DNA from: Sphingobacteriia bacterium
GTDB taxonomy: Bacteria > Bacteroidota > Bacteroidia > Chitinophagales > Chitinophagaceae
Reading direction: 5' to 3'
NCBI GenBank assembly: GCA_031429515.1
Contig: JANOZT010000013.1
Span: 121-64,120, forward strand
Length of the DNA: 64,000 nucleotides
The position numbers and the translations under genes were made by a program. The first letter of the stretch is position 1; each line of letters begins with the position of its first letter. Shown here one piece after another: positions 6,528 to 44,691 of this stretch. Below the pieces are notes generated by a model. That model was not told the DNA's origin, made no database searches, and saw only the letters and a program-made list of their open reading frames with translations.

Positions 6528-8354
6528 ATGTATCGTACACATACTTGTGGAGAGTTGAGAATTGGTCAGGTAAATGAATTAATCAGTTTGGCTGGCTGGG
6601 TGCAAACAGTTCGAAAATTTGGTGCAATTACTTTTGTGGATTTAAGAGATCGTTATGGCATTACACAATTGTTATTTGGAGAAGATTTGAATGGAGCTTT
6701 AGATGCCAATCCGTTAGGCAGAGAATTTGTATTACAAGTAAAAGGGAAAGTGCAAGAACGCAGTAGCAAGAATGCCAATATTCCAACTGGAGAAATTGAA
6801 ATCAATGTGACTGATTTTGTTATTCTCAATAAATCTGCTGTTCCCCCATTCACCATTCAAGATGATACAGATGGCGGAGATGATCTGCGAATGAAATATC
6901 GATTCTTGGATTTGCGTAGAAATGCAGTCAAGAAAAATTTAGAATTGCGCTATGCAGTGAATCGCTCTGCTAGAAATTATTTGCATGAAAATAATTTCAT
7001 GGATATTGAAACGCCTTTCTTAATTAAGTCTACACCAGAAGGAGCAAGGGATTTTGTAGTTCCTTCTAGAATGAATCCAGGACAATTTTATGCTTTACCT
7101 CAATCACCTCAAACATTCAAGCAATTGTTGATGGTCAGTGGATACGATAGATACTATCAAATCGTAAAATGTTTTAGAGATGAAGATTTAAGAGCCGATC
7201 GTCAACCTGAATTTACACAGATCGATTGTGAGATGGCATTTGTTGAGCAGGAAGATATTTTGAATATGTTTGAAGGTTTGGTGAAGCGTGTTTTTAAAGA
7301 TGTAAAAAATATCGATTATACTGAACAAGTAGAACGAATGACTTGGGAAGATGCTATGTGGCAGTTTGGAAATGATAAGCCCGATATTCGTTTTGGCATG
7401 AAACTGGCCAATTTAAAATCGGCTTTTTTGAAAGGAGGAACTATTCAAGCAACTGGCGATCTCATTAATGGTGCTGGTTTCGGCGTTTTCGATAATGCTG
7501 AAACCGTGTTGGCAATAGCAGCTCCAGGATGTTCAGAATATACCCGTAAACAAACCGATGAATTAATCGAATGGGTGAAGCGTCCTCAAATTGGCATGCA
7601 AGGTTTGGTTTACATTAAGTGCAATGCAGATGGTACATATAAGAGTAGCGTAGATAAATTTTATACGGAAGAAAAATTAAAAGCGATTGCTGATTCAGCT
7701 GGTGCTCAAGCAGGAGATTTGGTATTGATTCTTGCAGGTAGAGAAGAGCGTACTCGTAAGGCAATATCCGATTTGCGTTTAGAAATGGGAAAGCGCTTAG
7801 GCTTACGTAATGCAGACGAGTATAAATTATTATGGGTGATGGATTTTCCACTCTTTGAATATGCGGAAGAAGACAATCGTTGGGTAGCCCGACATCATCC
7901 ATTTACTTCTCCAAAGCCCGATCATATTGAAGTGATGATCAATAACAATCCATTGATTGAAAATGCAGATAAATATTTAGAACATCCTTATTCCAATATC
8001 AAAGCAAATGCCTATGATATGGTATTGAACGGTAACGAAATAGGAGGTGGCTCCATTAGAATTTACCAACGTCCGTTACAGGAAAAAATGTTTGCAGCAT
8101 TAGGAATGACTGAAGAAGAAGCATTGCATAAATTTGGATTTTTATTAGGTGCTTTTGAGTATGGAGCTCCACCACATGGTGGCATTGCATTTGGCTTCGA
8201 CAGACTTTGTTCTATTTTAGGTGGAAGTGAAAGTATCAGAGACTTTATTGCCTTCCCTAAAAACAATAGTGGCAGAGATGTAATGCTCGATGCACCAAGC
8301 GCTATTGATGATAAACAATTTGATGAATTACAGATCAAATTGAATTTAAAATAA
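6528..8354 (+). CDS. aspS: Aspartate--tRNA ligase
   Basis: [16 protein letters not shown]-like [12 protein letters not shown], motif 2 [14 protein letters not shown], motif 3 [13 protein letters not shown]. Confidence 0.98.
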
Positions 8355-12085: not shown

Positions 12086-14278
12086 TTATCTTAGGAACAA
12101 CATCTCTCTGTATTTTGGCAAAGTCCATGTTTCGTCGTCCACCAATTGTTCTAATTTATCTACATGGTAACGGATTTCGTCGAAGAAAGCAGATTTAACT
12201 TGACTTTCATAAGCAATGGCTTTTGTGCGAGTGTTTTCGATATTGTTCACAATTTTTCTTGCTTCAACCATACCATGAACTTTGGTATGAATTACTTGAA
12301 TATGCTCACTTACTTCTTTTAGAATGGATAATTGACTTGCATATGAAGACTCAGGTAATCCAGCAGATTTTAACCCATTAACGTTGGTCAATAAATCATT
12401 CTGGTATTTAATTGCAGAAGGCAATATATGGTTGATAGCTAAATCGCCCATAATTCTTGCTTCAATTTGCACCTTCTTGATGTATTTCTCTAATTCAATT
12501 TCATGACGAGCTTCTAGTTCAGTATGAGAATACACATTATTGGTTTCAAATAAATGCTTTGCTTTATCTGTAACCATTGCATCTAAAGCAACTGGAGTAG
12601 TTTTTAAATTAGGTAAACCTCTGCGTTCTGCTTCATGATGCCACTCATCGCTGTAACCATCTCCTTCGAATAATACTTTTTTACTTTCTACAATGTATTT
12701 CTGAATTACATGCATAATAGCAATTTCTTTTTTATCACCTTTTTCAATCAATGTATCTACATCTAGTTTGAATTTTCTCAAAGTATCTGCAACAATCGTA
12801 TTTAATACGGTCATAGAGATGGCGCAGTTTGCTGAAGAACCTACTGCACGGAATTCAAATTTATTTCCAGTAAAAGCAAAAGGAGATGTTCTGTTACGAT
12901 CTGTATTGTCTAGCATCAATTCAGGAATACTACGATGTAAATCTAATTTTAAGATAGCTTCGTCTTGTTCATCAAATTTATGTCCCACTCTTGTTTCAAC
13001 ATCAGCTAATACCTTGGCTAAATATTGACCCACAAAAACTGAAATGATTGCAGGAGGAGCTTCATTGGCACCTAAACGATGATCGTTAGGAGCAGATGCA
13101 ATTGCTGCACGTAAAATATCGGCATAATCATGAACTGCTTTAATAGTGTTCACAAAGAAAGTAAGGAACATCAAATTGGTCTTTGGCGTTTTTCCTGGTG
13201 CTAATAAATTCACACCTGTATCAGTTGCCATACTCCAGTTATTATGCTTACCACTTCCATTAATACCAGCAAATGGTTTTTCATGTAATAATACAACGAG
13301 CTTATGTCTTTTAGCAACTCGACTCATAACATCCATCAAAAGGGTATTATGGTCTACAGCAATATTTACTTCTTCAAAAATCGGAGCACACTCAAATTGA
13401 GCAGGAGCAACTTCATTGTGGCGGGTTCTTAAAGGAATGCCTAATTTATATGCTTCGGCTTCGTAGTCGCGCATAAAAGCATACACTCTTTCAGGAATAG
13501 ATCCAAAATAATGATCTTCTAACTGTTGACCTTTCGCTGGAGCAGCACCAAATACGGTTCTTCCACTTTGCACTAAATCGGGGCGAGCGTTTGCCAAAGC
13601 TTCGTCAATTACAAAGTATTCTTGTTCCCAGCCCAAAGTAGCAGTTACTTTAGTAACATTCTTATCGAAATAATTGCATACTTCAACAGCAGATTTATTC
13701 AAAGACTCTAAAGCTTTTAATAAAGGAGCTTTGTAATCTAAAGATTCACCTGTATAAGAAACGAAAATAGTTGGAATACACAATGTTCTTCCATCACCCG
13801 TTTCAATGATAAAAGCAGGAGAAGAAGGATCCCATGCAGTATAACCACGAGCTTCGAAAGTAGCTCTTAATCCACCACTCGGAAATGAAGATGCATCAGG
13901 TTCTTGTTGAATTAATGCAGCACCGTCAAATTCTTCGATTGCAGTTCCATCACTTTTTAAAGTGAAAAACGAATCATGCTTTTCTGCTGTGGTTCCTGTT
14001 AACGGCTGAAACCAGTGTGTATAGTGAGTAACGCCTTTGCTCTCTGCCCATGCCCTAATACCATTGGCAATCTGACTTGCTACATTTCTATCAATTTTTT
14101 TCCCACCACGAATGCTGGTAGTTAAACTTTTATAAGCTTCATCACTTAAAAATTCACGTGCGGTTTTAAGCGTAAACACACTTTCTCCGAAAATTCCTGT
14201 AATTTTTGTACTAGGTTTTGAGGCAATCCCTTCATTTTCTTTGGAGATGTTGCTAATTGCATTAAATCTTAAAGACAT
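12086..14278 (-). CDS. glnN: Glutamine synthetase type III
   Basis: THWFQPLTG.TAEKHDSF, EPDASSFPSGGLR.TFEARGY, HEKPFAGINGSGKHNNWS, DRNRTSPFAFTGNKFEFRA; 730 aa. Confidence 0.95.
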   Translation of the reverse strand: MSLRFNAISNISKENEGIASKPSTKITGIFGESVFTLKTAREFLSDEAYKSLTTSIRGGKKIDRNVASQIANGIRAWAESKGVTHYTHWFQPLTGTTAEKHDSFFTLKSDGTAIEEFDGAALIQQEPDASSFPSGGLRATFEARGYTAWDPSSPAFIIETGDGRTLCIPTIFVSYTGESLDYKAPLLKALESLNKSAVEVCNYFDKNVTKVTATLGWEQEYFVIDEALANARPDLVQSGRTVFGAAPAKGQQLEDHYFGSIPERVYAFMRDYEAEAYKLGIPLRTRHNEVAPAQFECAPIFEEVNIAVDHNTLLMDVMSRVAKRHKLVVLLHEKPFAGINGSGKHNNWSMATDTGVNLLAPGKTPKTNLMFLTFFVNTIKAVHDYADILRAAIASAPNDHRLGANEAPPAIISVFVGQYLAKVLADVETRVGHKFDEQDEAILKLDLHRSIPELMLDNTDRNRTSPFAFTGNKFEFRAVGSSANCAISMTVLNTIVADTLRKFKLDVDTLIEKGDKKEIAIMHVIQKYIVESKKVLFEGDGYSDEWHHEAERRGLPNLKTTPVALDAMVTDKAKHLFETNNVYSHTELEARHEIELEKYIKKVQIEARIMGDLAINHILPSAIKYQNDLLTNVNGLKSAGLPESSYASQLSILKEVSEHIQVIHTKVHGMVEARKIVNNIENTRTKAIAYESQVKSAFFDEIRYHVDKLEQLVDDETWTLPKYREMLFLR

Positions 14279-14448: not shown

Positions 14449-14474
14449 AAAAAGCGCCCCAATTGGAGCGCTTT
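14449..14474 (-). terminator. Intrinsic terminator after the 1403-aa T9SS cargo gene
   Basis: On minus strand AAAGCGCTCCAATTGGGGCGCTTTTTT. Confidence 0.7.
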
Positions 14475-14494: not shown

Positions 14495-17400
14495 TTAATC
14501 TTTACCCATTACCAATCTGGTAGCTTTGTATTTTACATTGCTTCCATCAAGACTAATGATATACACTTTTTGACCTTTGTTGATGTTCACATTAACTGGT
14601 ACAGCGTTTTCTCCTTTTGTAGCATTTACTGATTGACTCATTATTACATTACCAGTTCCAGCTTCTGTAACTTTTAAAGTAAGCGAGTAATCTTTATCTG
14701 CTTTAAACTTAAGGTTAAATGTTCCTTTAGAAGGATTAGGATATGCAGTAATATCTTTTGCAGATAAACTTCTGATATAGCCTATATCTTCTTTTGTAAA
14801 TGAAACATTGCTTAATGAAACTTCAACATTGGTATTTTTTCCAGCTGAAGTAGCTCCTAATGCAACAATCAAGGTAGTGATGTCTTTAGGATCGATTGAT
14901 TTATTAGAACCAGCAGATTTAAAGTCGCTTAATGGGATCAAGAAATCTGTCGCATCTTTATTTACAGCGAACTGATAAGTGTATTGATCAGCCCAATTTG
15001 TAATTGATTGTTTTACCAATGTTACTGTTAAAACCGAATTTCCAGCTGCAGTGATTTTCAGTGTTTTGAATGCACTTAGATCCTGTGCTGCACCACCACC
15101 TCTAAGTAATTTATATACTCCAATAAAGTCGGGAGTAGTTGCACTTACATCTACATTTCTGAAAAGATGGAATTCATCTTTAACTAATTGTGCAGTGCTA
15201 TTCTTTACATCAAATTTCTTAACACTTGTTGTATTGGTATTATAATCAACACCCCAAGATCCATCAGCCATAAATACTTCATCTTGCACAACTCCATTCA
15301 TATATAATTTAATGGTTGATTCATACAAGTCTCCAGTTTGAAGAGATATAGTTGTTTTACCATTGGCATTTACTGTGAAAGGAACCGTTCTTTTTGTATA
15401 AACAGTAGTGTTTTCAGTTGCTCTATCTGCCACTTCAAAATAACCACTTGTTCCTGCAGTTAAGTTATTAATGGTCATGCTAAGATTGTCTTCTACACGT
15501 TTACCTTCAGTAATATAAGTTTTTGGTAAACCAGCATTGCTCTTGATTTCATTAACTGGTAATCCAGCAGTTAAACGAGTGATGATATCAGCAGCCATAT
15601 CTGTTGCAAGAACAGGAGAACCACCCCAAAGTTGAATATTGTACATTGTTTCATCAACAGTATAATCTTTATTCAACCAATTGGATTGTATGGTATAACT
15701 ATTTCTTCCAGATTTTGCACCTATGATAAAGCTCATTGCATATTCAATATTACCATCGTTGTTTCTTAAGTTATATTGAACCATATTGATACCTTTTACG
15801 GTAACGTTTTGCATTGCTACTAATTCATATCCTTTCAAACGATCACAAATTGCTTTGGTATGATCGTACACTTCACCTTGAGTTTGAGTGCCAAATGCAA
15901 CCGCTTTAGGAGTATTTTCATTAACGAAGTCAATCGATAATACATCTTTAGCGTTGGTAATTCCAATCAGGTCTTTAGGTGTAGAAACAAAAGATTTAAA
16001 ATTGTAATTGACCAATTGACGAGGAAGAATATCAGACAATTTCAACTGAGATCCAGTTGCATTACTAACGATATTTCCTTTTCTTTCAGCGGATGGCATT
16101 TTACTATAATCAGCTGTTGCTGGAGTACTGTTAATGGCTTTATTGTAAACCCGAAGCGCAATTGCATCGCCTAAGCTTTTACTTTCAACTCCACCGCCAC
16201 CGCCACCACCAACTGAACCTGCAGTTGCAAATCCAAAATCGTAGCTATGGTTATTGGCACCGGAAACACCTGTAGTCATCATTATTGCAGAACGTTTATC
16301 TGTGCCTGCTAAACTCCATGCACTTCCGTCATTGTCTCTTTCATCTGCATTAGGATCTACTCCACCATTATTAGTCAGTGTAATATCATATCCACTCAAT
16401 GGAGCTTGTAATGGTGGTGCTCCTCCATCAAGACCATATATAGAAATAGTAAAGTCTGTATTAGGAGTAAGTTGTGTTAAACCATATTTCTCCGAAGCTG
16501 TTGAAGGTCTAGTAACACTTGGGTCTGAAGAAAATATATAATTTCCGTTTGCATCCGTTACGGCTGAAGCAATTAATGTATAAGCCGAACCTGGTCCAAC
16601 ATATTTAAGTAATTCAACAGTTACTCCTGCTATTCCATTTTCATCCGCATCTTGCACACCATTAGCATTCGCATCAAACCAAACACGGTTTCCAATTTCA
16701 ATTGGAGCTGGTGCAGAAATAATTTCTAAATCTCCTAAACCATTGGCTTTACCAAAAAATTCTACACTTCCACCTTCGTATAAAACTTTACCTGCTTTAG
16801 CAATACCATCTTGAGTAGAATAATATCGAACACCACCAGTATACCAGTTGGTAATAGGGTCAAAAGCAGTTGCAACTAATTCTTTACCTGGAAACATTGC
16901 AATACTACCAGTGCTGGTTTCTTCATGAGAAACACCACCATTAGTACCGTTAGCTGTATTGCCAATTCCCAAAGCACCACCTTGACCATTTTCATAACGA
17001 TCTGTGAAGAAAAACTCTCCACCGCCAGGGCCTTCATTGTTGCCAGCACCATTGGTAGTTATACTTCCACTCGTGCCATTACTTTCTAAAGTGAAGCTGG
17101 TATATGTTCCATTATTTGCAGCTTTTAAAATATCTCCAGCAGCATTTGATGTATACAAAGTGTTATTACCCATGCTTGTTGGAGCTAAATTCTGATTTCC
17201 GGATTGATGCCCAGATCTATCAGTAATGCCCAACATCATTGCACCATCAGCAGGATCAAATTCCAAAGAACTCAACATAGGTTGAGGATAAATAATTTTA
17301 TCTGATCCTGGAGGAATAACTGCTTCTGTAAAATTTCTAGCCCATGGATGCCATGAACCTTGGCACAATGTTGCTGCAGCTATTGTTCCATTTGGATCAA

Positions 17401-18706
17401 CGTAGTTAGAATTTTTATTTACTCCAAAACCAGTATTCATATTGGCTCTACGCTGATAGGTTAGTGGTGCATCTAATACGGTTGTAAACGTTTCTGTTCC
17501 GGGTGTAACGGTTGCACTCACTTTTAACACTACTGCTTTCAACTCAGATCTATTCACTGAAGAATTATCTGGTTTTACACCATCTAATACACCGCCTACA
17601 TAAATAGCACCTCTATAAAACTTAACTGCAAATGGTCTGAATGTGCTGTTACCAGCAGCTACAGGAAATGCATTATAAGCTACAATTTGAGAAGCTAAGG
17701 TTGGAGCAGTTCCATTAGTACCAATATCGACTCTCCATAATTTTTTATCATTTAAGTTGATGATGTATAAATATCTTCCATCATCAGAAATAGCCATTCC
17801 TCCCATGCCTTTTTTGCCTACTTCATCAAATACATTGCCACCAGTCATATCATCTCTATTGGCTTGGTTTCTAGCCTGATTACCAGGAGCAAAAGATCTG
17901 CCAGGCAAAGAGCCTGCGTCAAATGCTGGATTGATCGCATTTAAGTTAACAAAATTTCCAGTGTTGGTTTTAGTTGTTATTGCTTTTGCTCCAGTAGTAA
18001 CATAAATTCCATTCATGCCAAGAGGTCCAAGCGATACATGTCTTTTTACAAAAGCAGCATAAAATAATTTATCTGCTTTTCTACTATAAGCTGTGGCCCA
18101 AACTGAACCAGTTTGTCCCATATCGCTAATCACATTGGCAGCTGCGCCACTTCCATAATTAAAAGCATAAGTATTATCTGCACCAGATGCTGCTGGCCAT
18201 GCACCAGGAACTTGGTTATTACCGTTAGTATAGGATGGTACAACAATTCTTGCAGTTGCAGATTCAATATAATCACCAGGATAATTGATAGCAAAATTTG
18301 ACGTAATAGAAGGAGCTGTTACAAACTGAACACTTGTTTTATTATTTGTACCGTATGCTCCGGGATAATCTTCAGACATCCATCCGGTAAATTCTAAGCG
18401 TACTTTAGTTGCTGCAGAAATTTGACCTGAAGTAAAACTATAGTTGCCATTTGCACCAGATGTTGTAGTTGCTAATAAAGTGCCAGATGCATTATATGCA
18501 TTTACTGTAACTCCAGCAGCACCAGGTTCGTTGTAGCCAACGCCTGTTTCTTTAGTACCAGAAGCATTATAATCTCTAAAAACATTTCCACTGACTTGCG
18601 CGGAAAGTTCTGAAGAGCTAAAGGCAAAAACACATAAGGCAATAGCAATGCCTAATGATTTTTTTGCATTAATAATAATTGAGTAAATTTTTTTCATATA
18701 GTACAT
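14495..18706 (-). CDS. T9SS cargo: SdrD B-like domains + propeller-like region + shared C-terminal module + type A CTD
   Basis: Signal peptide ending AQ; [20 protein letters not shown] and [29 protein letters not shown] (SdrD_B-like); C-terminal AYPNPSKG...GEN CTD. Confidence 0.85.
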
Positions 18707-18874
18707 TTATGATTGAACCCTTGTATAAAATAGTACGGAACGTGTTTTTTTAACAATATTGTGTAAGTGAAAAAACAATTCTTGTAGTATATACTCTACA
18801 CACAACGTAAAAGTAACGAAATTTCTCGAAAAATACACTGTTTGCATATGCTAAAATCCTTACTGAGCAAGACG

Positions 18875-18894
18875 TATACCAACTAGTTTGTATA
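18875..18894. promoter_or_regulatory. 20-bp palindrome TATACCAACTAGTTTGTATA, candidate response-regulator operator
   Basis: 9 of 10 pairs complementary; close copy at 26249-26264. Confidence 0.6.
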
Positions 18895-18985
18895 TTTAGG
18901 TGTTAAATTTTAACCGATTTCAATTTTTTTAAAAGTTTTTTTTGAATATTTAATTTAAATTTACTTGCTGTACATTATAAAACAA

Positions 18986-19978
18986 ATGAATACACATTTT
19001 AATAAAAACAAATATGTCAAAGCGTCGAGTTTTCGATCATATGTAAATTTATTTACAAGTATCAATATTATTTTTCTGTGTTTTTTCATAATTCCCAACA
19101 ACTTGGTAGCACAATCTGCCATTAAGCCCTGCCAAAAGGAGCCAGATTTCATAAAATCTTTGGGATTTGATCCTTTGTGGACAGCATTAAGCACCAGTGA
19201 AAAAAAGCTCACTGGAATTGCTTTGATTGAATTTGAACAGATGGAAGGTCAAAAATCGCCTTCTCCAACAAATCCCAAAAAAACGGTGTATCAAGCTCCT
19301 TCATGGAAATCATTCGGCTATCTTTCCTCGATTGCTTTTGATATTAATGGCAATGCGTATACCATACCAACTCCTTTGATTTCCATGTTGTATAATCCTA
19401 TTGAAAAATTGAATACGATTTATCGATTGGATCAATACACCGGAGTATTGAATGAATGGTTGAATCTTCCGATTAATTCAAAAACAACCACTCGTAATCC
19501 TTTTGGATTATTGGGTATCACTTATGATTGTACTGCTAATATTTTGATTGCATCTACTGTAGCTGGCTCTGATCGATATCAAGAAAAAGGAATGATATTT
19601 TTGATCAATCCAAACACCCAAAAAATCATTGATACTTTAATGCATAAAGATGCAATAGGTCTCAATGTTGCTTTCGACGAAAATAAACAAAAACGATTGT
19701 ATATTGGAAGTGCAAGAAATGGAAATATCATTTCTATTCCAATCAATGCTCAAGGCCAATTAGTAAAGTCTAAATTGCGAAAAGAGCTTAGCTTGCAAGG
19801 GTTTGGGCCTAGAGGCGATGATAAAGCAAGAAAAATAAAAATGGTAGAGGGAGCGCTGATTATTAGTGGTGTTGCATTTAATTATAACTTACAAGCTTCT
19901 AGTGAAAAACCAGAAACAGTATACACTTTTAAGTGGAATACTTCTGCCAAAAACTGGGACTTGATTGACTATAAATAA
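18986..19978 (+). CDS. Secreted hypothetical protein, probable beta-propeller
   Basis: Hydrophobic leader ending LVAQ; repeated strand motifs (SIAFDINGNAYT, GITYDCTANILIAS, GLNVAFDEN..RLYIGS); start 18986 (ATG) or 18965 (TTG). Confidence 0.65.
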   Translation: MNTHFNKNKYVKASSFRSYVNLFTSINIIFLCFFIIPNNLVAQSAIKPCQKEPDFIKSLGFDPLWTALSTSEKKLTGIALIEFEQMEGQKSPSPTNPKKTVYQAPSWKSFGYLSSIAFDINGNAYTIPTPLISMLYNPIEKLNTIYRLDQYTGVLNEWLNLPINSKTTTRNPFGLLGITYDCTANILIASTVAGSDRYQEKGMIFLINPNTQKIIDTLMHKDAIGLNVAFDENKQKRLYIGSARNGNIISIPINAQGQLVKSKLRKELSLQGFGPRGDDKARKIKMVEGALIISGVAFNYNLQASSEKPETVYTFKWNTSAKNWDLIDYK

Positions 19979-19982
19979 GGCT

Positions 19983-21041
19983 ATGAAAAAGCAATGGAGC
20001 ATATTATTTTTTTTGGTGCTAATTATTTTTTCTTCCCTCTTTATTGACCAATTATTTTCTACTCCTATTCATTCTTCCAGTAATTCAAAAATCATTTTAG
20101 GCAGGTATTTATTCTTTGATAATCAATTGTCTTACAATCAAACAAAGTCTTGTGCTTCTTGTCATGATCCACAATTTGCATTTTCAGATGGGTATAGAAA
20201 ATCAGTTGGAGCAGATGGAGAAAATCTTACAAGAAATGCCCCTTCACTTTTAAATACTAAATACTTAAAAGCACTCACATGGGGGGATAGTTCTATTCAT
20301 GAATTTTATCAACAAATGAATTTTCCATTATTTAATGAACACCCAAAAGAATTGGGATGGACCAATAATGAATCGGAAATAATCAACCGTTTTAAATTAG
20401 ACCCTTTTTACCAAACCCTTTTCAGTAACGCATTTCCAAAGGAAAAAAATCCTTTTTCAACATTTTTTTTCCAAGAAGCCATTGCAGCTTTTGAAAATCA
20501 ATTACAATCTCAGAATAGTCCATATGATCAATATGTAAAAGGCAATAAAGATGCGATGAATGAAAAAGCAATCAATGGGTTAGCATTATTTAATTCCGCA
20601 AGTTTGGGATGTTTTAAATGCCATTCCTTGAATGTATCTCAACAACAATTATTGTATGCTAATACTGGTTTGTATAATCTAGATGAAGTTGGATCATACC
20701 CATCTTCAGACCAAGGGCTATATGAAATAACTAAAAACACCAACGACAAAGGCAAGTTTCGTGTGCCCTCATTGAGGAATATAATGCTAACAGCACCCTA
20801 CACACATGATGGTTCTGTTGAAACAATCCAACAAATGATTTATATTTATAAAAGAGGAGGTCGCTTAATTGAAGCGAAAGAAAACAAAGGGGATGGTCAT
20901 AACAATAAAAATAAATCTAGTTTAATAAAAGGCTTTACTTTATCAGATAAAGAGCAAACAGAATTAATTGAATTTCTTGCAGCTTTAACCGATACTAGCT
21001 ACTTAAGAAATAAGCAATTAATGAATCCTTTCAATAAATAA
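19983..21041 (+). CDS. Di-heme cytochrome c peroxidase-family enzyme, MbnH/MauG-like
   Basis: LGRYLFFD..LS, CASCH (20151-20165), CFKCH (20610-20624), NTGLYNLD..G.YP, GKFRVPSLRN..LTAPYTHDGS, GGR.I...GDG..N..KS..I.GF.L; N-terminal signal/anchor. Confidence 0.9.
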   Translation: MKKQWSILFFLVLIIFSSLFIDQLFSTPIHSSSNSKIILGRYLFFDNQLSYNQTKSCASCHDPQFAFSDGYRKSVGADGENLTRNAPSLLNTKYLKALTWGDSSIHEFYQQMNFPLFNEHPKELGWTNNESEIINRFKLDPFYQTLFSNAFPKEKNPFSTFFFQEAIAAFENQLQSQNSPYDQYVKGNKDAMNEKAINGLALFNSASLGCFKCHSLNVSQQQLLYANTGLYNLDEVGSYPSSDQGLYEITKNTNDKGKFRVPSLRNIMLTAPYTHDGSVETIQQMIYIYKRGGRLIEAKENKGDGHNNKNKSSLIKGFTLSDKEQTELIEFLAALTDTSYLRNKQLMNPFNK

Positions 21042-21043
21042 TA

Positions 21044-22831
21044 ATGATTGTACAAATAAAAAATTATTGGATAATAGTGCTTTTGTTAATGAGTTCAATC
21101 ATTGTATCTGCTCAACAAAAAAAATCTCTCCTAAAATCTACCAAAGCCAATGATGCGCTTTATTTGAGTGAGTTTAAAGAATCAGTTTTTGCAACAAAAA
21201 AAATAGACACCACTGCTTTTATTGTTGAACGAAAAAAACAAATCGACTCCATATTACATGATGAAATACCCGTGAAATACTATTCCGATAAAACCGATGA
21301 AAGAACTATGTTGGCGCAAAATATTGCTTTGCAAGACTCTTTTTTTATCAAATATATCTTTGATAAAAAAACGCATCAACCATTGTGGAATGAAATATTT
21401 GGTGTATATCCTGCAAGACCAGGGGATATTAGAAAAGGTGTTGTGAATTTGCCAGGTTCATTAATGCGTATTGAAATGTATAATTATGCGTTGAATTTAA
21501 CTACTATAGGTGTAGTCAATATCATAACACATAAAATGATCAGTGTAGATCACTATCCTCAAATGCAACCAGATATTCCTTCAAGGCTTACTAAATTGGC
21601 GGTAAAAATTGCGGTCAATTCACCTGAAGTGGAGAAAGCACTCGGATTTAAACCTTCTGCTGATTTGCCCATCATGTCGAGTACCAAAACAGCATTGAAT
21701 AGAACAAAATGCGAAAGGTCTCAGCATTTATGTGTTGCACCAACTTTTGTAAAAGGCAATAGAGCTTTATGGGCCATTGTGGACCTTACAGATAATCGAT
21801 TGGTAGGATTACGTTGGACCAATGTTGGGAAAGATGCTGAAAATTTAGTAGTTACAGAAAGAAAATTACAGAATGAAAATATGGCCGATTGTTATTGCGA
21901 AAAAATCAACACGGTTAAAAAAAATAACTGGGCAGTTGATTATGTTTTAACAGCCTCCGATGGACTCATGATTAGTAATGTAAGTTTCAATTCAAACAAA
22001 ATAATCAATAGTGCAAAATTGGTAGATTGGCATGTAAGTTACTCTGGTACTGATGGTTTCGGTTACAGTGATGCTGTAGGTTGCCCAATCTTTAGCCAAT
22101 CGGCTGTAGTGGCAACAGATCCGCCTATTATAGCAGACATAATTGAAGGGGATAGTACAGTTGGTTTTATGCTCGAACAGCGATTCTTCAGCGAATTATG
22201 GCCTATTGCTTGTAATTATAGTTATTCCCAGCGTTTTTTCTTTTACAAAAATGGTCAATTCAGAATGGTTTGTGCAAGTTTAGGAAGGGGTTGTGGAAAT
22301 AATGGAATTTACCGACCTGTGATGCGTATTTCATTTGCAGGTAATAAACAATCGTTTTATGAGTGGGGTAATAATGCTTGGAATATTTGGGACAAAGAAA
22401 AATGGCAATTACAACAACCAACAACATCTTATTCACCCAAGGGATTTCAGTATCAACTCCAAACGAGCAACAACAATGGGTTTTATATAGAGCCAGGCAA
22501 GGGTCAATTTAATGACAGTGGAAGAGGAGATAATGCCTACTTATACATTACTAAAAACCATTTAGATAAAAATGAAGGAGAAACCGATTTGGTAACAATT
22601 GGACCATGTTGCAATATCGATTACCGACAAGGCCCCGAAAAGTTCATTGAACCAAATCCAGAGCAAATTGTTAACACTGACTTAGTGCTCTGGTATGTTC
22701 CTCAAATGAAGAATGACGATACTCCAGGATCCAAATATTGTTGGGCTGAAACCTATTATGAGGGTGGTGTATATAAAATTAAATCTTACCCTTGTTTTGC
22801 AGGACCAATGTTTGTTCCTTTCAAAAAATGA
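21044..22831 (+). CDS. Secreted copper amine oxidase-fold protein lacking the canonical Cu-binding histidines
   Basis: Ordered CAO-like blocks: AIVDLTDNRLV, NWAVDY...GLMISNVSF...WHVSY..GYSD, CNYSYSQRFFFYKNGQF, YLYITKN, EQIVNTDLVLWY; recognised by eye against remembered E. coli TynA sequence. Confidence 0.75.
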   Translation: MIVQIKNYWIIVLLLMSSIIVSAQQKKSLLKSTKANDALYLSEFKESVFATKKIDTTAFIVERKKQIDSILHDEIPVKYYSDKTDERTMLAQNIALQDSFFIKYIFDKKTHQPLWNEIFGVYPARPGDIRKGVVNLPGSLMRIEMYNYALNLTTIGVVNIITHKMISVDHYPQMQPDIPSRLTKLAVKIAVNSPEVEKALGFKPSADLPIMSSTKTALNRTKCERSQHLCVAPTFVKGNRALWAIVDLTDNRLVGLRWTNVGKDAENLVVTERKLQNENMADCYCEKINTVKKNNWAVDYVLTASDGLMISNVSFNSNKIINSAKLVDWHVSYSGTDGFGYSDAVGCPIFSQSAVVATDPPIIADIIEGDSTVGFMLEQRFFSELWPIACNYSYSQRFFFYKNGQFRMVCASLGRGCGNNGIYRPVMRISFAGNKQSFYEWGNNAWNIWDKEKWQLQQPTTSYSPKGFQYQLQTSNNNGFYIEPGKGQFNDSGRGDNAYLYITKNHLDKNEGETDLVTIGPCCNIDYRQGPEKFIEPNPEQIVNTDLVLWYVPQMKNDDTPGSKYCWAETYYEGGVYKIKSYPCFAGPMFVPFKK

Positions 22832-22850
22832 CGTATATTGAATTTTATTT

Positions 22851-23489
22851 ATGAGCGAAAAAATTAACTTAATGATTGCCGATGACCATCCACTTTTTGT
22901 GGAAGGTCTAAAGATGATATTGGGGAGTGATCCAGCAATCAATATTGCAGGTATTGCAAATGACGGCAAGCAGTTGCTGTACTTACTCACTCAGCAACCA
23001 GATATTGATTTAATTTTATTGGATGTGAATATGCCTAACCTAAATGGCTTAGATACAATCAAATACATCAAACAATCTTTCGTTACTGTTAGGGTTTTAA
23101 TGCTTTCTGCATACAATGACGCAAAATTAATTGAGCAAGCAAAAAAAGCTGGCGCAGATGGATACATATTAAAGAACAGTAGCAAAGACGAACTATCGGG
23201 TGCCATTAAAAAAGTTGCCGGAGGTGAGTCTGTTTTCATTTTGGGAAAAGAAGAGAACTTGCCAGATGCTTTCAAAAAATTAGATACCTTTTTACACAAA
23301 TTCAATCTCACTAAGAGGGAATTAGAAATTGTTTATTACCTAAAGCAAACTTACACCAATCAGCAAATAGCAGAAAAATTGCATTTGAGTATTTATACGG
23401 TTGAAACACATCGTAAAAATATCATGCATAAATTACAATTAAATTCCCCAGCGGCTTTGGTTAAATTCATGATTGAATTTAACGTATAA
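22851..23489 (+). CDS. NarL/FixJ (LuxR-type HTH) two-component response regulator
   Basis: IADDH, LLDVNMP, MLS, GYILK receiver motifs; LTKRELEI...TNQQIAEKLHLSIYTVETHRKNIMHKL HTH. Confidence 0.95.
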   Translation: MSEKINLMIADDHPLFVEGLKMILGSDPAINIAGIANDGKQLLYLLTQQPDIDLILLDVNMPNLNGLDTIKYIKQSFVTVRVLMLSAYNDAKLIEQAKKAGADGYILKNSSKDELSGAIKKVAGGESVFILGKEENLPDAFKKLDTFLHKFNLTKRELEIVYYLKQTYTNQQIAEKLHLSIYTVETHRKNIMHKLQLNSPAALVKFMIEFNV

Positions 23490-23536
23490 AAAAAGCCCCC
23501 ATTGCTGGAAGCTATTTCTATTGAAGTCCTAAAAAT

Positions 23537-26029
23537 TTATTGTTGTATCAATATTTTCTGTGGTTGAAGTTTGATGCCATTTCCCTCAATGGTTAGTATG
23601 CTAATAGATATACCAGGTAAATTGGTCATCTGAACTGGAACCTGATTTTCTCCTTTCACTACATTGGCGTCTCTGGTAAATAATACTCTTCCGCTTGATG
23701 CATCAGTAATCTTAATAGTGGCAGTAGTATTTACTTCACTATTAAATTTCGCTGTGAATTTTCCTCCCTTTGCAGGATTAGGAAATACATTGATAAATGT
23801 ATTTGTAGCTGCAGCAACTTCATATGGCGCTTTTTTAGAAAAAGCAATATTGTTGATGGCCGCATCAATTGTTGTTGATCTTCCATCAAAAGTTTCGAAA
23901 GCAAATACAACAGTAACTATATCATTGGCTTCAAATCCGGCTGTTGAATTCGTTGCTTTGAAACTACTCAAATCTATTCTGTATTCTTTAAATTCTTTTC
24001 CAATAGTAGTGCTGTATTTAAATTGTTTTTCAAAATCGTTGATGGAATTTTTTGCCAAAGTAATTTTTAGTTTTGCATCTCCTTTAGCGGTTAATACCAA
24101 TGTTTTATATTCACTCAGATCTACTGCAACACCTGCTCCTTTTAATACTTTGTAAGCGGTAATATAATTAGGAGTTGTTGCCTTTATTTTTACATTTCTG
24201 AATACAGGATAGTCTCCTGCAGCAATTCCTTTTGAAGTATCGTTCAATATGCTAAACTCCTTTAATACAGTTTTGGAAGAGTCATAATCAATTCCCCAAG
24301 TGCCATCACTCATATAAACTTGATCCTGTAATTTGCCATTGATATACATAGATACATTGCTCTCAAAAACATCACTCATTGGGAAAGTAACGGTTGATTT
24401 GTTGAATGCATTTAAATTAAATGGAATAGTTCTTTTTGTTTTTATTGTTGCCATTTCGTTGGCTTTCTCTTCCACTTCAAAATATCCACTACTAAAGATG
24501 CTTTGATTATTGATGGATAAATTTAAATTGGTTCCATTACGACTTCCGCTTGTGAAATAAGTTTTAGGTAGTTCTGCGGAAGCAATAAATTGCTGAATAG
24601 GCATTATAGCATTCAATTTGCTCAAAATTTCTAAAGCCATATCTATGCATAAATACGGAGCTGCACCCCAAACCTGGTAGTTGATTAATGTGTCTTCACT
24701 GATATAATCTTTATTCAACCAATTAGATTGAAAAGAGAAACTATTCCTTCCTATTTTTTTACCTACTGAAAAGCTCATTGCATATTCAATATTTCCAGTA
24801 GACTGTTGTAAAGTGTACCTGATAAAATTTAAACTGTTTAAAGAAAAATTCTCCACATTCAATAATTCAGCACCTTTCAATCGATCACACATAGGTTTTG
24901 TATGATCATACATTACACCTTGTGTTTTTGTTGCAAAAGCTACTGCTTTGCAAATTCCATCTTTTGTAAAGTCTACAGATCTTACTTCTTTTGCGTTTGT
25001 AATAAAAGGAATATCTGTAGGTGTAGTTATATAAGCTGTGTATCCAGAATCTAATATGCGTGAAGGCATTAAGTCGGCCAATCTCAAGCCAGTATTAGAA
25101 GAAGTTGCATTGCTAGTGATCATTCTAGACTCAGGTTGGAGTAATTGCATTTGTTGATAATTCACTTCACCGTTACTTCCTTCTAGTAATTTTCCATAAA
25201 TTCTTTTAGCAATTTTATCTCCTAAGCTTTTGCTTTCTAATCCACCCGTATTTCCTGAAAATGAAATTTTTCCATCTATTGTTAAATCAGGAATACTATC
25301 CATTTTGTTGACGCATTCGATCGGTGTAACTGTTGTAAAAAATATCAAATCATTGAAGTCGTTATCACAGCCATTGTTATCTCTTCTAATATCTTCAAAA
25401 CCAATAACAATTCTATTGGAACTAGAATCTCTGAGTAAAACAGTATGTCTTTTATTTGAAACAATAGGTTCAGGATTAAAAGCTGCGGTAGAATACAATG
25501 TCCAGTTTCCAGGAGTTACAATAGTTCCATTCCATCCGTCAGCCATCAATACAAATCCAATACCTGTTTTTGCAGGAAAATTGCCTAAGAATACTTTATC
25601 ACCTGCATTTAATGCACCACCTGCACCATTTTTAGATGCATTGGGAAAAATTATTTTGATTTGATTTGCTGCAGGAGTAGAAGTAGGTGGATTGTCTGTA
25701 TTGAAAGTATAATAACCTAGGGCATTTCTATAACCAGCGCCTTCATCAACAAAAGTAATCCAAATATCTGAAGCACATTTAACATCAATGGTTTCGGTTC
25801 TTCCATCTGCAATTAAACGAGGGTTATAGGTTGGAACTGGTCTGTTCTCTGGCAAAGAAGCGGCAATCTTACTTAGGAATGATGCACTAAGCACATCTCT
25901 AGTTGGCAATAAATAATTTGGTTTCCCTTGATTATCATAAGTGCCTAAATATTGGTATTGGCCAATTGATTTTGTGGAAACTAGAATAAGTATGGTCAGT
26001 CCTAGATAATGCGTAAATTTCTTAAGCAT
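23537..26029 (-). CDS. T9SS cargo: DUF4114-like N-terminal domain + shared C-terminal module + type A CTD
   Basis: Signal peptide ending IGQ; TFVDEGAGYRNALGYY and GFEDIRRD...DNDFNDLIF; C-terminal NVFPNPAKG...GEN CTD; C-terminal ~570 aa colinear with 14495-18706 product. Confidence 0.85.
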   Translation of the reverse strand: MLKKFTHYLGLTILILVSTKSIGQYQYLGTYDNQGKPNYLLPTRDVLSASFLSKIAASLPENRPVPTYNPRLIADGRTETIDVKCASDIWITFVDEGAGYRNALGYYTFNTDNPPTSTPAANQIKIIFPNASKNGAGGALNAGDKVFLGNFPAKTGIGFVLMADGWNGTIVTPGNWTLYSTAAFNPEPIVSNKRHTVLLRDSSSNRIVIGFEDIRRDNNGCDNDFNDLIFFTTVTPIECVNKMDSIPDLTIDGKISFSGNTGGLESKSLGDKIAKRIYGKLLEGSNGEVNYQQMQLLQPESRMITSNATSSNTGLRLADLMPSRILDSGYTAYITTPTDIPFITNAKEVRSVDFTKDGICKAVAFATKTQGVMYDHTKPMCDRLKGAELLNVENFSLNSLNFIRYTLQQSTGNIEYAMSFSVGKKIGRNSFSFQSNWLNKDYISEDTLINYQVWGAAPYLCIDMALEILSKLNAIMPIQQFIASAELPKTYFTSGSRNGTNLNLSINNQSIFSSGYFEVEEKANEMATIKTKRTIPFNLNAFNKSTVTFPMSDVFESNVSMYINGKLQDQVYMSDGTWGIDYDSSKTVLKEFSILNDTSKGIAAGDYPVFRNVKIKATTPNYITAYKVLKGAGVAVDLSEYKTLVLTAKGDAKLKITLAKNSINDFEKQFKYSTTIGKEFKEYRIDLSSFKATNSTAGFEANDIVTVVFAFETFDGRSTTIDAAINNIAFSKKAPYEVAAATNTFINVFPNPAKGGKFTAKFNSEVNTTATIKITDASSGRVLFTRDANVVKGENQVPVQMTNLPGISISILTIEGNGIKLQPQKILIQQ

Positions 26030-26248: not shown

Positions 26249-26264
26249 TACCAACTGGTTGGTA
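26249..26264. promoter_or_regulatory. 7-2-7 palindrome TACCAAC-TG-GTTGGTA, candidate operator
   Basis: Perfect 7-bp arms; matches core of 18877-18892 at 14/16. Confidence 0.6.
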
Positions 26265-26390: not shown

Positions 26391-28595
26391 ATGGAAATTA
26401 CTGTAAAAACCGCTCAACAGCTCCGCCTTACTGCTGAAGAATTTGAGCTGATCCAACAAAAATTAAATAGAACACCCAATTTCACTGAGTTATGTGCTTT
26501 TAGCGGCATGTGGAGTGAACATTGTAGTTATAAAAACTCCATTAAATGGTTAAAAACATTGCCAAGAAATGGCGGTAGAATGTTGGTAGCTGCAGGAGAA
26601 GAAAATGCAGGTTTAATGGATATTGGAAATGGTTTTGGTGTAGTGTTTAAAATAGAAAGCCATAATCATCCTAGTGCAATAGAACCATTTCAAGGTGCTG
26701 CAACTGGTGTTGGCGGAATTCAAAGAGATATATTCACCATGGGAGCAAGGCCTATTGCTTCAATGAATAGTTTGCGCTTTGGAAATCTAAAAGATAAAAA
26801 AACGCAACACTTATTATCAGGTGTTGTAAAGGGTATTGGGCATTATGGAAATTGTTTTGGTGTTCCAACAGTTGGAGGTGAAGTTTATTTTGAAGATTGT
26901 TACCATACCAATCCTTTAGTGAATGCAATGAGTGTTGGGATAATGAAAGCTGGTGATATGGTAAGTGCAACAGCAAAAGGCACTGGCAATCCTGTAATTT
27001 ATGTTGGAAGTGCAACCGGAAAAGATGGAATTGGTGGAGCTAGTTTTGCGAGTGCAGATATTACTCATGATAGTGTTCAAGAATTGCCTGCAGTTCAAGT
27101 GGGCGATCCTTTTCAAGAGAAGAAATTATTAGAAGCTTGTTTAGAAGTATTAACAACAGGAGCTGTTGTAGGTATGCAGGATATGGGTGCGGCAGGAATT
27201 ATTTGCAGTACAGCAGAGATGAGTGCAAAAGGCGAAGTAGGAATGCATATCGATTTAGAGAAAGTACCTACTCGACAACAAAACATGAAAGCTTGGGAAT
27301 TACTTTTAAGTGAAAGTCAGGAAAGAATGTTGATGGTTGTAGAAAAAGGAAGAGAAGCAGAAGTAGTTGCTGTTTTTGAAAAATGGGATTTAAGTGCAAG
27401 CACAATTGGTCATGTTACCGACGACGGTTTGTTGAAATTTTACATGAATGGAGAACTAGAAGCATCATTACCTGCATACGAATTGGTATTAGGTGGAGGT
27501 GCTCCTCAATACACTAGAGAATACACGGAGCCTGCTTATTTCGAAAAAATCAATGCATTCAATATTGCAGATATAGAAGACATTGCTGATATAAAAGAAG
27601 TTGCTGAATCATTAGTGTCATTGCCCAATATCGCCAGTAAACGATGGATATATACGCAATATGATAGTATGGTTGGTGCTGCAAATTTGAGTACCAATAA
27701 TCCTAGCGATGCTTCTATTGTTTTAGCAAAAGGAACTGGTAAAGCCTTGGCAATGACCGTAGATTGCAATAGCAAATATGTTTATGCAAATCCTTATATC
27801 GGTGGAATGATTGCTGTTGCAGAAGCAGCAAGAAATATTGTTTGTAGTGGTGCTGAGCCAATCGGTGTGACCAATTGTTTGAATTTTGGAAACCCGTATG
27901 ACCCCGAAGTTTATTTTCAATTTGTACATGCCGTTACTGGTATGGGCGATGCTTGTAAAAAATTCAATACACCAGTAACTGGTGGTAATGTGAGTTTCTA
28001 TAATCAAAACCCTGATGGTCCGGTATATCCAACACCAACAATTGGAATGGTGGGTATCTTGGAAGATATCGAAGCAAAAATGACCTTGCATTTTAAAAAT
28101 GCAGGTGATACGATTGTATTAATTGGTCAGCAACACAATGATATTGCATCAAGTGAATATTTACATAAACTAAAGAAAGTTCAATATTCACCAGCGCCCT
28201 ATTTTAATTTGGATGAAGAATACAATATACAACAGTTTGTGTATGAGCTCATTCAAAAAAAGAAAATCAACAGCGCTCATGATATTAGCGAAGGGGGATT
28301 GATGATTACTTTATTTGAGAGTGGATTTGCTGGTAATAAGGGATTCAATGTAGATCCTTCAATAGAAATGAGAAAAGACGCTTATTGGTTTGGAGAAGCT
28401 CAAGGAAGAATTGTTGTTTCAGTTAATACCAATGCGTTGGACACTTTATTGAATGATGCAAAAGCTGCTGGAATTGCATGTTCAATAGTAGGAACAGTAA
28501 CAGAAAGTGATATTGAAGTGAGTGGAGAAAATTGGGGAGATATCAATGGTTGGAAAGAGAAATATGATACTGCTATAGAAAAGATGATTCAATAA
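26391..28595 (+). CDS. purL: Phosphoribosylformylglycinamidine synthase subunit PurL
   Basis: MWSEHCSYK, KIESHNHPSAIEPFQGAATGVGGIQRD, QDMGAAG, TGGNVSFYN. Confidence 0.97.
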   Translation: MEITVKTAQQLRLTAEEFELIQQKLNRTPNFTELCAFSGMWSEHCSYKNSIKWLKTLPRNGGRMLVAAGEENAGLMDIGNGFGVVFKIESHNHPSAIEPFQGAATGVGGIQRDIFTMGARPIASMNSLRFGNLKDKKTQHLLSGVVKGIGHYGNCFGVPTVGGEVYFEDCYHTNPLVNAMSVGIMKAGDMVSATAKGTGNPVIYVGSATGKDGIGGASFASADITHDSVQELPAVQVGDPFQEKKLLEACLEVLTTGAVVGMQDMGAAGIICSTAEMSAKGEVGMHIDLEKVPTRQQNMKAWELLLSESQERMLMVVEKGREAEVVAVFEKWDLSASTIGHVTDDGLLKFYMNGELEASLPAYELVLGGGAPQYTREYTEPAYFEKINAFNIADIEDIADIKEVAESLVSLPNIASKRWIYTQYDSMVGAANLSTNNPSDASIVLAKGTGKALAMTVDCNSKYVYANPYIGGMIAVAEAARNIVCSGAEPIGVTNCLNFGNPYDPEVYFQFVHAVTGMGDACKKFNTPVTGGNVSFYNQNPDGPVYPTPTIGMVGILEDIEAKMTLHFKNAGDTIVLIGQQHNDIASSEYLHKLKKVQYSPAPYFNLDEEYNIQQFVYELIQKKKINSAHDISEGGLMITLFESGFAGNKGFNVDPSIEMRKDAYWFGEAQGRIVVSVNTNALDTLLNDAKAAGIACSIVGTVTESDIEVSGENWGDINGWKEKYDTAIEKMIQ

Positions 28596-44662: not shown

Positions 44663-44691
44663 AACGCCCCGATTTTTTCGGGGCGTTTTTT
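44663..44691. terminator. Terminator between convergent ilvE and T9SS cargo gene
   Basis: AACGCCCCGA-TTTTT-TCGGGGCGTT followed by T-tract. Confidence 0.8.

Follow-up and report, generated by a model that had tools for sequence, protein, structure and literature searches.

We analysed a window of 64 kb (64,000 nt, positions 121 to 64,120 of contig JANOZT010000013.1 from a Sphingobacteriia bacterium), and report here on a block at 14495-26029, whose core is a conserved extracytoplasmic module of three genes coding for a β-propeller, a di-heme enzyme of the MauG/MbnH type, and a protein of 595 residues that is a distant homolog of the copper amine oxidases (CAOs). These genes are followed by the gene of a response regulator, and the group is flanked by two minus-strand genes for large proteins resembling cargo of the type IX secretion system (T9SS), named here cargo A and cargo B (Table 1). 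A preliminary description of this DNA, made from the sequence alone, had placed an 11.5-kb block between GSIII and purL, which we locate at 12086-14278 and 26391-28595, and the block and all of its parts (propeller, di-heme enzyme, 595-residue protein, regulator and the two flanking cargo genes) were recovered at the same coordinates.

In the open reading frame (ORF) map, the four genes from the propeller to the regulator form one plus-strand run, with alternative starts for the propeller (18965 or 18986, giving 337 or 330 residues) and for the di-heme enzyme (19965 or 19983, giving 358 or 352 residues). The intergenic gaps of 4, 2 and 19 nt noted previously are obtained when the ATG starts are used. 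Hairpin terminators are present 3′ of the cargo A gene and in the 47 nt that separate the convergent regulator and cargo B genes, and no hairpin of comparable strength was found in the interior of the run (at most 7 stem pairs, against 8-10 for the terminators), which is consistent with a single operon. A scan for sigma-70 promoters was uninformative, with 50 sites found and 51 expected.

Table 1 Features of the block at 14495-26029 and its borders (window coordinates; CTD, C-terminal domain; AF2, AlphaFold2)
Feature	Position	Strand	Details	Basis
Hairpin terminator, 3′ of cargo A gene	14451..14474	-	10-bp stem, 6 G-C pairs, then T run	
Cargo A	14495-18706	-	1403 aa	Pfam, homolog comparison
Cargo A layout		-	signal peptide; N-terminal SdrD_B-like domain; head aa 131-670 (nt 16697-18316); SdrD_B repeat ~aa 670-790; twin module aa 835-1310; T9SS-type CTD aa 1322-1403	Pfam, homologs
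Candidate operator 1	18877..18892		TACCAACTAGTTTGTA; divergent cargo A/operon intergenic region	
Exported β-propeller	18986-19978	+	330 aa (ATG); 337 aa from TTG at 18965	AF2
MbnH-family (MauG-type) di-heme enzyme	19983-21041	+	352 aa from ATG	TIGR04039, PF03150, motifs
Di-heme enzyme motifs		+	C57xxCH61, C210xxCH214, W100, Y289 (sixth-ligand position)	alignment
Copper-site-less amine-oxidase-fold protein	21044-22831	+	595 aa, signal peptide	AF2, Foldseek, hhalign
Candidate active site of the 595-aa protein	22211-22225 (residues 390-394)	+	Y333, D343, C390-N391-Y392-S393-Y394	alignment to CAOs
NarL/LuxR-type response regulator	22851-23489	+	212 aa, last operon gene	Response_reg + GerE
Hairpin terminator, regulator/cargo B gap	23494..23513	-	8-bp stem, then T run	
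Cargo B	23537-26029	-	830 aa	Pfam
Cargo B layout		-	signal peptide; DUF4114 aa 151-233; twin module aa 259-745; T9SS-type CTD aa 748-830	Pfam
Candidate operator 2	26249..26264		TACCAACTGGTTGGTA; upstream of cargo B	

The amine-oxidase-fold protein and the di-heme enzyme

The 595-residue protein scores 20.3 bits against PF01179, below the gathering threshold of 27, and PDB sequence searches, performed with the single sequence and with a profile, matched no amine oxidase. The amine oxidase fold proposed in the preliminary description is borne out by two other comparisons. A Foldseek search with the AF2 model (pLDDT 76) returned exclusively copper amine oxidases among the top 50 matches, with an E value of 2e-16 and a probability of 1.0. 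We also compared the family by hhalign with a CAO profile, made by aligning eight amine oxidases of bacteria and archaea, and obtained a probability of 96.5% with the close homologs only, in which case the catalytic Asp fell in a gap; the addition of Chloroflexota members raised the probability to 99.1% (E 1.6e-18, 447 columns, domains D2-D4) and resolved this gap. Judged by profile and predicted structure, the protein is a remote yet clear homolog of the copper amine oxidases, with an identity of about 12%. The absence of the copper ligands, together with the sub-threshold Pfam score, makes it a distant homolog and not a member of the copper amine oxidases themselves.

The profile alignment places N391-Y392-S393-Y394 exactly on the N-Y-E-Y motif of the CAOs, in which the first Tyr is the precursor of topaquinone (TPQ). 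Y333 aligns with CAO Y287, the conserved, TPQ-contacting Tyr of 'VPYGDP', and D343 with the catalytic Asp301 of 'FDxGEY'. In the alignment of 193 family members these positions are nearly invariant, with Y392, Y394 and D343 each kept in 191, Y333 in 192, C390 in 190 and N391 in 175, and they are retained in the Chloroflexota members too. The HxH copper ligands, in turn, fall inside a six-residue deletion of the 595-residue protein ('YRPV------MRI'), and the position of the third copper His is occupied by K556/N557, with His there in none of the 193 members. The protein had previously been called His-less, which holds for all three copper ligands but not for the protein as a whole, in which H228 and H330 are conserved. 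As far as the alignment tells, the organic half of the amine oxidase site (the TPQ Tyr, the Asp and the contacting Tyr) is preserved and the copper half is lost.

The loss of the copper site is also what would be expected if the protein were a non-catalytic descendant of an amine oxidase, with a binding or structural role, and if the gene set served the assembly of surface proteins or adhesion without quinone chemistry. The many invariant Cys residues, expected of a disulfide-rich exported protein, the association with large adhesin-like T9SS proteins and the PKD fusions found in Chloroflexota point in the same direction. However, a catalytic Asp and a TPQ Tyr motif that are near-invariant over two phyla, at about 12% identity to CAOs, are hard to explain without catalysis. 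The same applies to the conserved pairing with an oxidising di-heme enzyme, and we consider a purely non-catalytic role improbable. Some of the invariant Cys residues (C283/C285, C347 and the vicinal pair C522-C523) coincide with low-confidence loops of the AF2 model (residues 264-285, 344-352 and 517-535), and the invariant Cys residues could form disulfides, a Cys-ligated metal site or cross-links.

At 90% identity, the family of the 595-residue protein falls into at least 1635 clusters; all of those with a named source are labelled 'hypothetical'. Its hidden Markov model (HMM) recovered 336 clusters at 50% identity among 1.84 billion proteins, a number so small that the model evidently does not extend to the true amine oxidases. 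Members are common among freshwater and soil Chitinophagaceae, and the remote members with a named organism are all from Chloroflexota.

The gene immediately upstream codes for the di-heme enzyme, for which the preliminary description had given an MbnH/MauG-like assignment. The protein scores 368.9 bits on TIGR04039, the model of the MbnH family, above the cutoff of 362.85, which corroborates that assignment; its score on the MauG model is far lower, and it also matches PF03150 (E 5.9e-42). Among PDB entries the best match is 6e1c (E 5e-68), which we take to be MbnH, followed by canonical peroxidases (E ~1e-36) and MauG (E 4e-20). Y289 aligns with the Tyr of the 'DIYSEGG' segment of 6e1c, and W100 with the conserved inter-heme Trp. 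At least 95% of 68 di-heme homologs retain both CXXCH motifs and Y289. The sixth heme ligand position taken by Y289 is a Tyr in MauG and BthA, and a Met in peroxidases (PMC6405878). A search for an MbnP-family partner among eight proteins of the locus gave no match at E <= 0.01.

Conservation of the gene set in Bacteroidota and Chloroflexota

To describe the gene neighbourhood we used one genome per species, which gave 312 genomes with a relative, and analysed the best 80, which are, with few exceptions, labelled Chitinophagaceae, Sphingobacteriia or other Bacteroidota. Presence was counted in the 47 loci (species-level genomes) that have at least 3 kb of flanking sequence on each side. The oxidase-like gene is accompanied by the di-heme gene in 46 of these loci, by the propeller gene also in 46 and by both in 45, whereas a gene of the cargo family is present in just 38/47 and the regulator in 23/47. 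The preliminary description had considered that the genes might fail to co-occur in other genomes, and this co-occurrence of all three in 45 of 47 genomes speaks in favour of its interpretation. Three gene orders were observed, propeller/di-heme/oxidase-like (n=39), di-heme/oxidase-like/propeller (n=25) and oxidase-like/propeller/di-heme (n=1), which speaks against synteny that is simply inherited. In 69 of 70 loci the immediate 5′ neighbour of the oxidase-like gene is the di-heme gene, with a median gap of about 2 nt. Cultured carriers of the gene set exist, namely Sediminibacterium salmoneum NBRC 103935 (L028) and Parasediminibacterium paludis CECT 8010 (L046). At one further locus (L099), the oxidase-like, propeller and cargo A-like genes are preceded by the gene of a polytopic membrane protein of 298 residues.

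The pairing extends to a second phylum. In Candidatus Viridilinea and in Chloroflexales ZM16-3, a gene for a MauG-type di-heme lipoprotein is found immediately 5′ of the oxidase-like gene; in Viridilinea this lipoprotein contains two CXXCH motifs and the segment 'PYFHDG...RFY'. The association between the di-heme and the oxidase-like genes is strong and recurrent across phyla, yet it is not obligatory. Chloroflexota homologs of the Anaerolineae/Ardenticatenia type (L090-L096) carry C-terminal extensions, with PKD repeats in some, and have no di-heme or propeller gene within 8 kb. A Bac_luciferase-family gene, which may be a further recurrent neighbour in Chloroflexales, adjoins the oxidase-like gene of Kouleothrix (L097 6874-7806) and, in Oscillochloris trichoides (L100 4804-5823), the related di-heme gene.

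Homologs that have the same active-site residues and no nearby di-heme gene suggest another possibility, namely that the 595-residue protein matures by itself, or through another factor or metal, and that the di-heme enzyme is a redox partner, either removing H2O2 or exchanging electrons with the reduced quinone. The peroxidase activity retained by BthA, a di-heme enzyme with Tyr-His ligation (PMC6405878), and the fact that H2O2 is a product of amine oxidases (PMC11951088) would fit such a role. The copper site required for self-processing is, however, absent, and the tight and ordered adjacency of the di-heme and oxidase-like genes in two phyla is typical of maturase-substrate pairs, although it remains compatible with a partner role. 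Furthermore, from what is generally known of MauG, Tyr-His ligation leads to low heme potentials and to bis-Fe(IV) chemistry rather than to electron shuttling. Taken with its two sides, this explanation seems to us unlikely, though worth keeping in mind.

Propeller, regulator, cargo proteins and genomic setting

The propeller assignment made previously is supported by a confident AF2 model (pLDDT 89.3, pTM 0.83). The best Foldseek matches are paraoxonase-1 and YncE (E ~1e-5), with a profile match to YncE at E 2.7e-4, and this likeness is generic; the protein matches no Pfam family. W107 is invariant among the propeller homologs and W324 near-invariant. At five loci from metagenome-assembled genomes (MAGs; L027, L038, L039, L063 and L065) the propeller homologs have internal stops or no single callable ORF, which may reflect assembly errors or decaying genes.

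These Trp residues make the propeller a conceivable target of the di-heme enzyme, which could convert a Trp of the propeller, or of the N-terminal head of cargo A, to kynurenine in a copper site, as MbnH does with MbnP and as inferred for MopE and CorA, with the oxidase-like protein having a separate role. The HMM score places the enzyme in the MbnH family, both the propeller and the head of cargo A accompany the oxidase-like and di-heme genes, and the surface proteins MopE and CorA have known kynurenine-copper sites (PMC11951088). In contrast, the gene that the di-heme gene adjoins in 69 of 70 loci is the oxidase-like gene and not that of the propeller, the Chloroflexales pair occurs without any propeller or cargo homolog, no neighbour matches the MbnP model, and cargo A is missing from nine of the 47 loci. 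A neighbour other than the oxidase-like protein is, from this balance, an improbable target.

The last gene of the operon codes for a regulator with a receiver domain (Response_reg, PF00072, E 3.8e-26) and a GerE domain (PF00196, E 2.3e-15). The two domains confirm the regulator of NarL type proposed previously; its matches to the NarL-type NCBIfam models are all below their cutoffs. No histidine kinase was found among the ORFs of the window scanned with Pfam (18 of 32 ORFs of at least 200 aa), and the regulator is an orphan in this respect. The palindrome ACCAACTNGTTKGT, which had been described as common to the upstream regions of both cargo genes, has only two matches in the 64 kb (18878 and 26250), against 0.23 expected, and none of 100 shuffled sequences equalled this number; one copy lies upstream of each cargo gene, as proposed. 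In relatives that contain the regulator, the palindrome is kept both in the gap between cargo A and the propeller and in the intergenic region between cargo B and purL, and it is largely missing from loci without the regulator. This pattern makes the palindrome a plausible operator for the regulator. In Sediminibacterium-like genomes the regulator would thus probably bind the TACCAAC-N2-GTTGGTA palindromes and co-regulate the operon and both cargo genes.

The sorting domains of both cargo proteins score below the cutoff of 27 bits (PF18962 Por_Secre_tail/TIGR04183), with 22.1 bits for cargo A and 18.9 for cargo B, while homologous cargo proteins reach 26.5-34 bits. The assignment as T9SS cargo made previously is tentative for the two proteins themselves; the organism belongs to the Bacteroidota, and another gene of the window codes for a clear T9SS cargo (below). 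The SdrD_B match of cargo A has an E value of 1.1e-22 and the DUF4114 match of cargo B one of 1.8e-16. The two proteins are 40% identical over 573 C-terminal residues (E 3e-157), in agreement with the common C-terminal module already noted. This twin module of about 480 residues (nt 14777-16204 in cargo A and 23795-25255 in cargo B) has no match in Pfam or the PDB.

The cargo A head, of 540 residues, belongs to no family, and its profile gives a weak match to the YVTN propeller 1l0q (E 4.8e-5). Distant Bacteroidota loci have head homologs of 28-37% identity beside the trio of genes, each continuing into 1 to 10 SdrD_B repeats and a T9SS sorting domain. The twin module, cargo B and the regulator, on the other hand, are confined to Sediminibacterium-like genomes. 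The earlier picture of twin cargo genes bracketing the operon holds for the latter genomes only, and of the two cargo proteins just the head of cargo A is conserved as a neighbour more widely. Elsewhere in the window (44690-48799, minus strand) lies a third large gene for T9SS cargo, a protein of 1369 aa whose sorting domain is clear (42.5 bits) and which matches no other Pfam domain.

Sediminibacterium MAGs have the locus with 95% identity for the 595-residue protein and the same synteny from GSIII to purL. A horizontal-transfer island was considered and set aside, since Sediminibacterium genomes keep the block in synteny between GSIII and purL, and it is just slightly lower in GC content. 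A dip in GC to 0.31-0.33 lies at 19000-21500, over the propeller and di-heme genes, with flanks at 0.36-0.39. Housekeeping genes surround the block, with aspS, accC and GSIII on one side, and purL, an epimerase gene, proC, pyrG, yidC and fusA on the other.

Proposed function and relation to known systems

Judging from the sequence evidence, the most likely function of the gene set is to provide a copper-independent quinoprotein whose maturation depends on the di-heme enzyme. We assign a probability of about 40% to the reading in which the di-heme enzyme converts Y392 into a quinone, the 595-residue protein is then a copper-free, amine-oxidising quinoprotein, the propeller is its partner, and the cargo A head is a candidate substrate or partner. 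TPQ and lysine tyrosylquinone (LTQ) are formed autocatalytically with copper and O2, accessory enzymes being known for Trp-derived quinones only (PMC11951088), and MauG and MbnH each act through a bis-Fe(IV) state to oxidise residues in a partner encoded with them (PMC11951088).

In the proposed mechanism, the 595-residue protein would still be a quinoprotein, and Y392 would not be self-processed, because the formation of TPQ and LTQ normally needs copper and O2. The adjacent di-heme enzyme would therefore oxidise Y392 to the quinone, using H2O2 and long-range radical chemistry via bis-Fe(IV), as MauG does with the tryptophans of methylamine dehydrogenase, and a cross-link, for example to the invariant C390, may be formed as well. 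The mature protein would then oxidise primary amines, either free or in lysine side chains of surface proteins, acting as a copper-free oxidase or dehydrogenase. The propeller would be a partner subunit or a scaffold, and the head of cargo A would probably serve as a partner or substrate during its periplasmic passage to the T9SS. More tentative is the specific proposal that the cofactor is a TPQ-like or C390-linked tyrosylquinone, installed by a MauG-type di-heme enzyme and not by copper and O2; this would define a copper-independent class in the envelopes of Chitinophagales and some Chloroflexales, maybe acting on lysines of T9SS-exported surface proteins.

Several observations weigh against a quinone installed in this way. 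With respect to the protein itself, the D/E position of the TPQ consensus N-Y-D/E-Y is occupied by S, N or R in the 193 family members, the AF2 model is moderately confident and has global TM-scores of about 0.3 to the CAOs, and the numerous invariant Cys residues could be plain disulfides. With respect to gene content, one Bacteroidota locus (L072) has no di-heme gene within 8 kb, and in L099 the polytopic membrane protein (7099-7995), with a weak match to RnfD/NqrB, takes the place of the di-heme gene. Four homologs of the Anaerolineae/Ardenticatenia type stand alone with the same conserved residues, the oxidase-like gene of Kouleothrix adjoins a propeller homolog with no di-heme gene nearby, the stretch devoid of one being 6-8 kb in all of these cases, and the Chloroflexales di-heme clade also occurs without an oxidase-like gene (Oscillochloris, L102). 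In addition, to our knowledge the characterised enzymes of the MauG family modify tryptophan and not tyrosine. The idea of a protein-derived cofactor, put forward in the preliminary description, is on the whole strengthened at the level of the alignments, by TPQ-site residues that are near-invariant and copper ligands that are gone; the di-heme gene, for its part, is not obligatory.

Like CAOs such as AGAO and E. coli TynA, the 595-residue protein has the D2-D3-D4 fold; in the alignment it carries N-Y-x-Y where the CAOs form TPQ, and it keeps the catalytic Asp and the Tyr that contacts TPQ. It differs from them in that the three copper His residues are absent and the residue following the cofactor Tyr is no longer acidic, and in that its gene is linked to that of a di-heme enzyme, whereas TPQ in the CAOs is autocatalytic. 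The pair of MauG and methylamine dehydrogenase is similar in that a di-heme enzyme of the Tyr-His type is encoded together with a periplasmic quinoprotein, which here is a candidate one. The heavy subunit of methylamine dehydrogenase is a propeller, and a β-propeller is thus present in both sets, as a likeness of gene content and not as an established homology of our propeller to MauB. The targets differ, being two tryptophans of the small light subunit in methylamine dehydrogenase and a putative tyrosine of a 595-residue amine oxidase fold here, and the di-heme enzyme is nearer to 6e1c than to MauG. Its best PDB match and its TIGR04039 score bring it close to the MbnH/MbnP system; in contrast to that system, the locus has no MbnP-family protein and no methanobactin context, and its constant neighbour is the oxidase-like protein.

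Other quinoproteins, with cysteine tryptophylquinone (CTQ) or LTQ (quinohemoprotein amine dehydrogenase, LodA/GoxA and lysyl oxidase), also use protein-derived quinones for amine oxidation, some of them made by accessory enzymes and some acting on protein lysines (PMC11951088). They have other folds, however, and depend on accessory flavoproteins or radical-SAM enzymes, or on copper in the case of LTQ, and none of them pairs an amine oxidase fold with a di-heme partner. The preliminary description knew of no system with this composition, and our literature search likewise found no description of the gene set; the sequence similarity network study of the bCCP_MauG superfamily (PMC6405878) and a 2025 review of protein-derived cofactors (PMC11951088) are silent on the combination.

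The gene set is conserved and undescribed, and the pattern of a quinoprotein with an accessory maturase is already known in kind. Both known Tyr-derived quinones, TPQ and LTQ, are thought to arise by copper/O2 self-processing alone, and we know of no residue other than tryptophan that is modified by MauG-type enzymes. A TPQ site that is kept, a copper site that is lost and a MauG-type neighbour together provide a concrete and testable case for enzyme-installed tyrosyl quinones, for a wider substrate range of the di-heme maturases and for copper-independent amine oxidation at the cell surface, and a protein family so far labelled 'hypothetical' now has a hypothesis assigned to it. If the proposal is true, this would be the first Tyr-derived quinone cofactor installed by a MauG-type di-heme enzyme.

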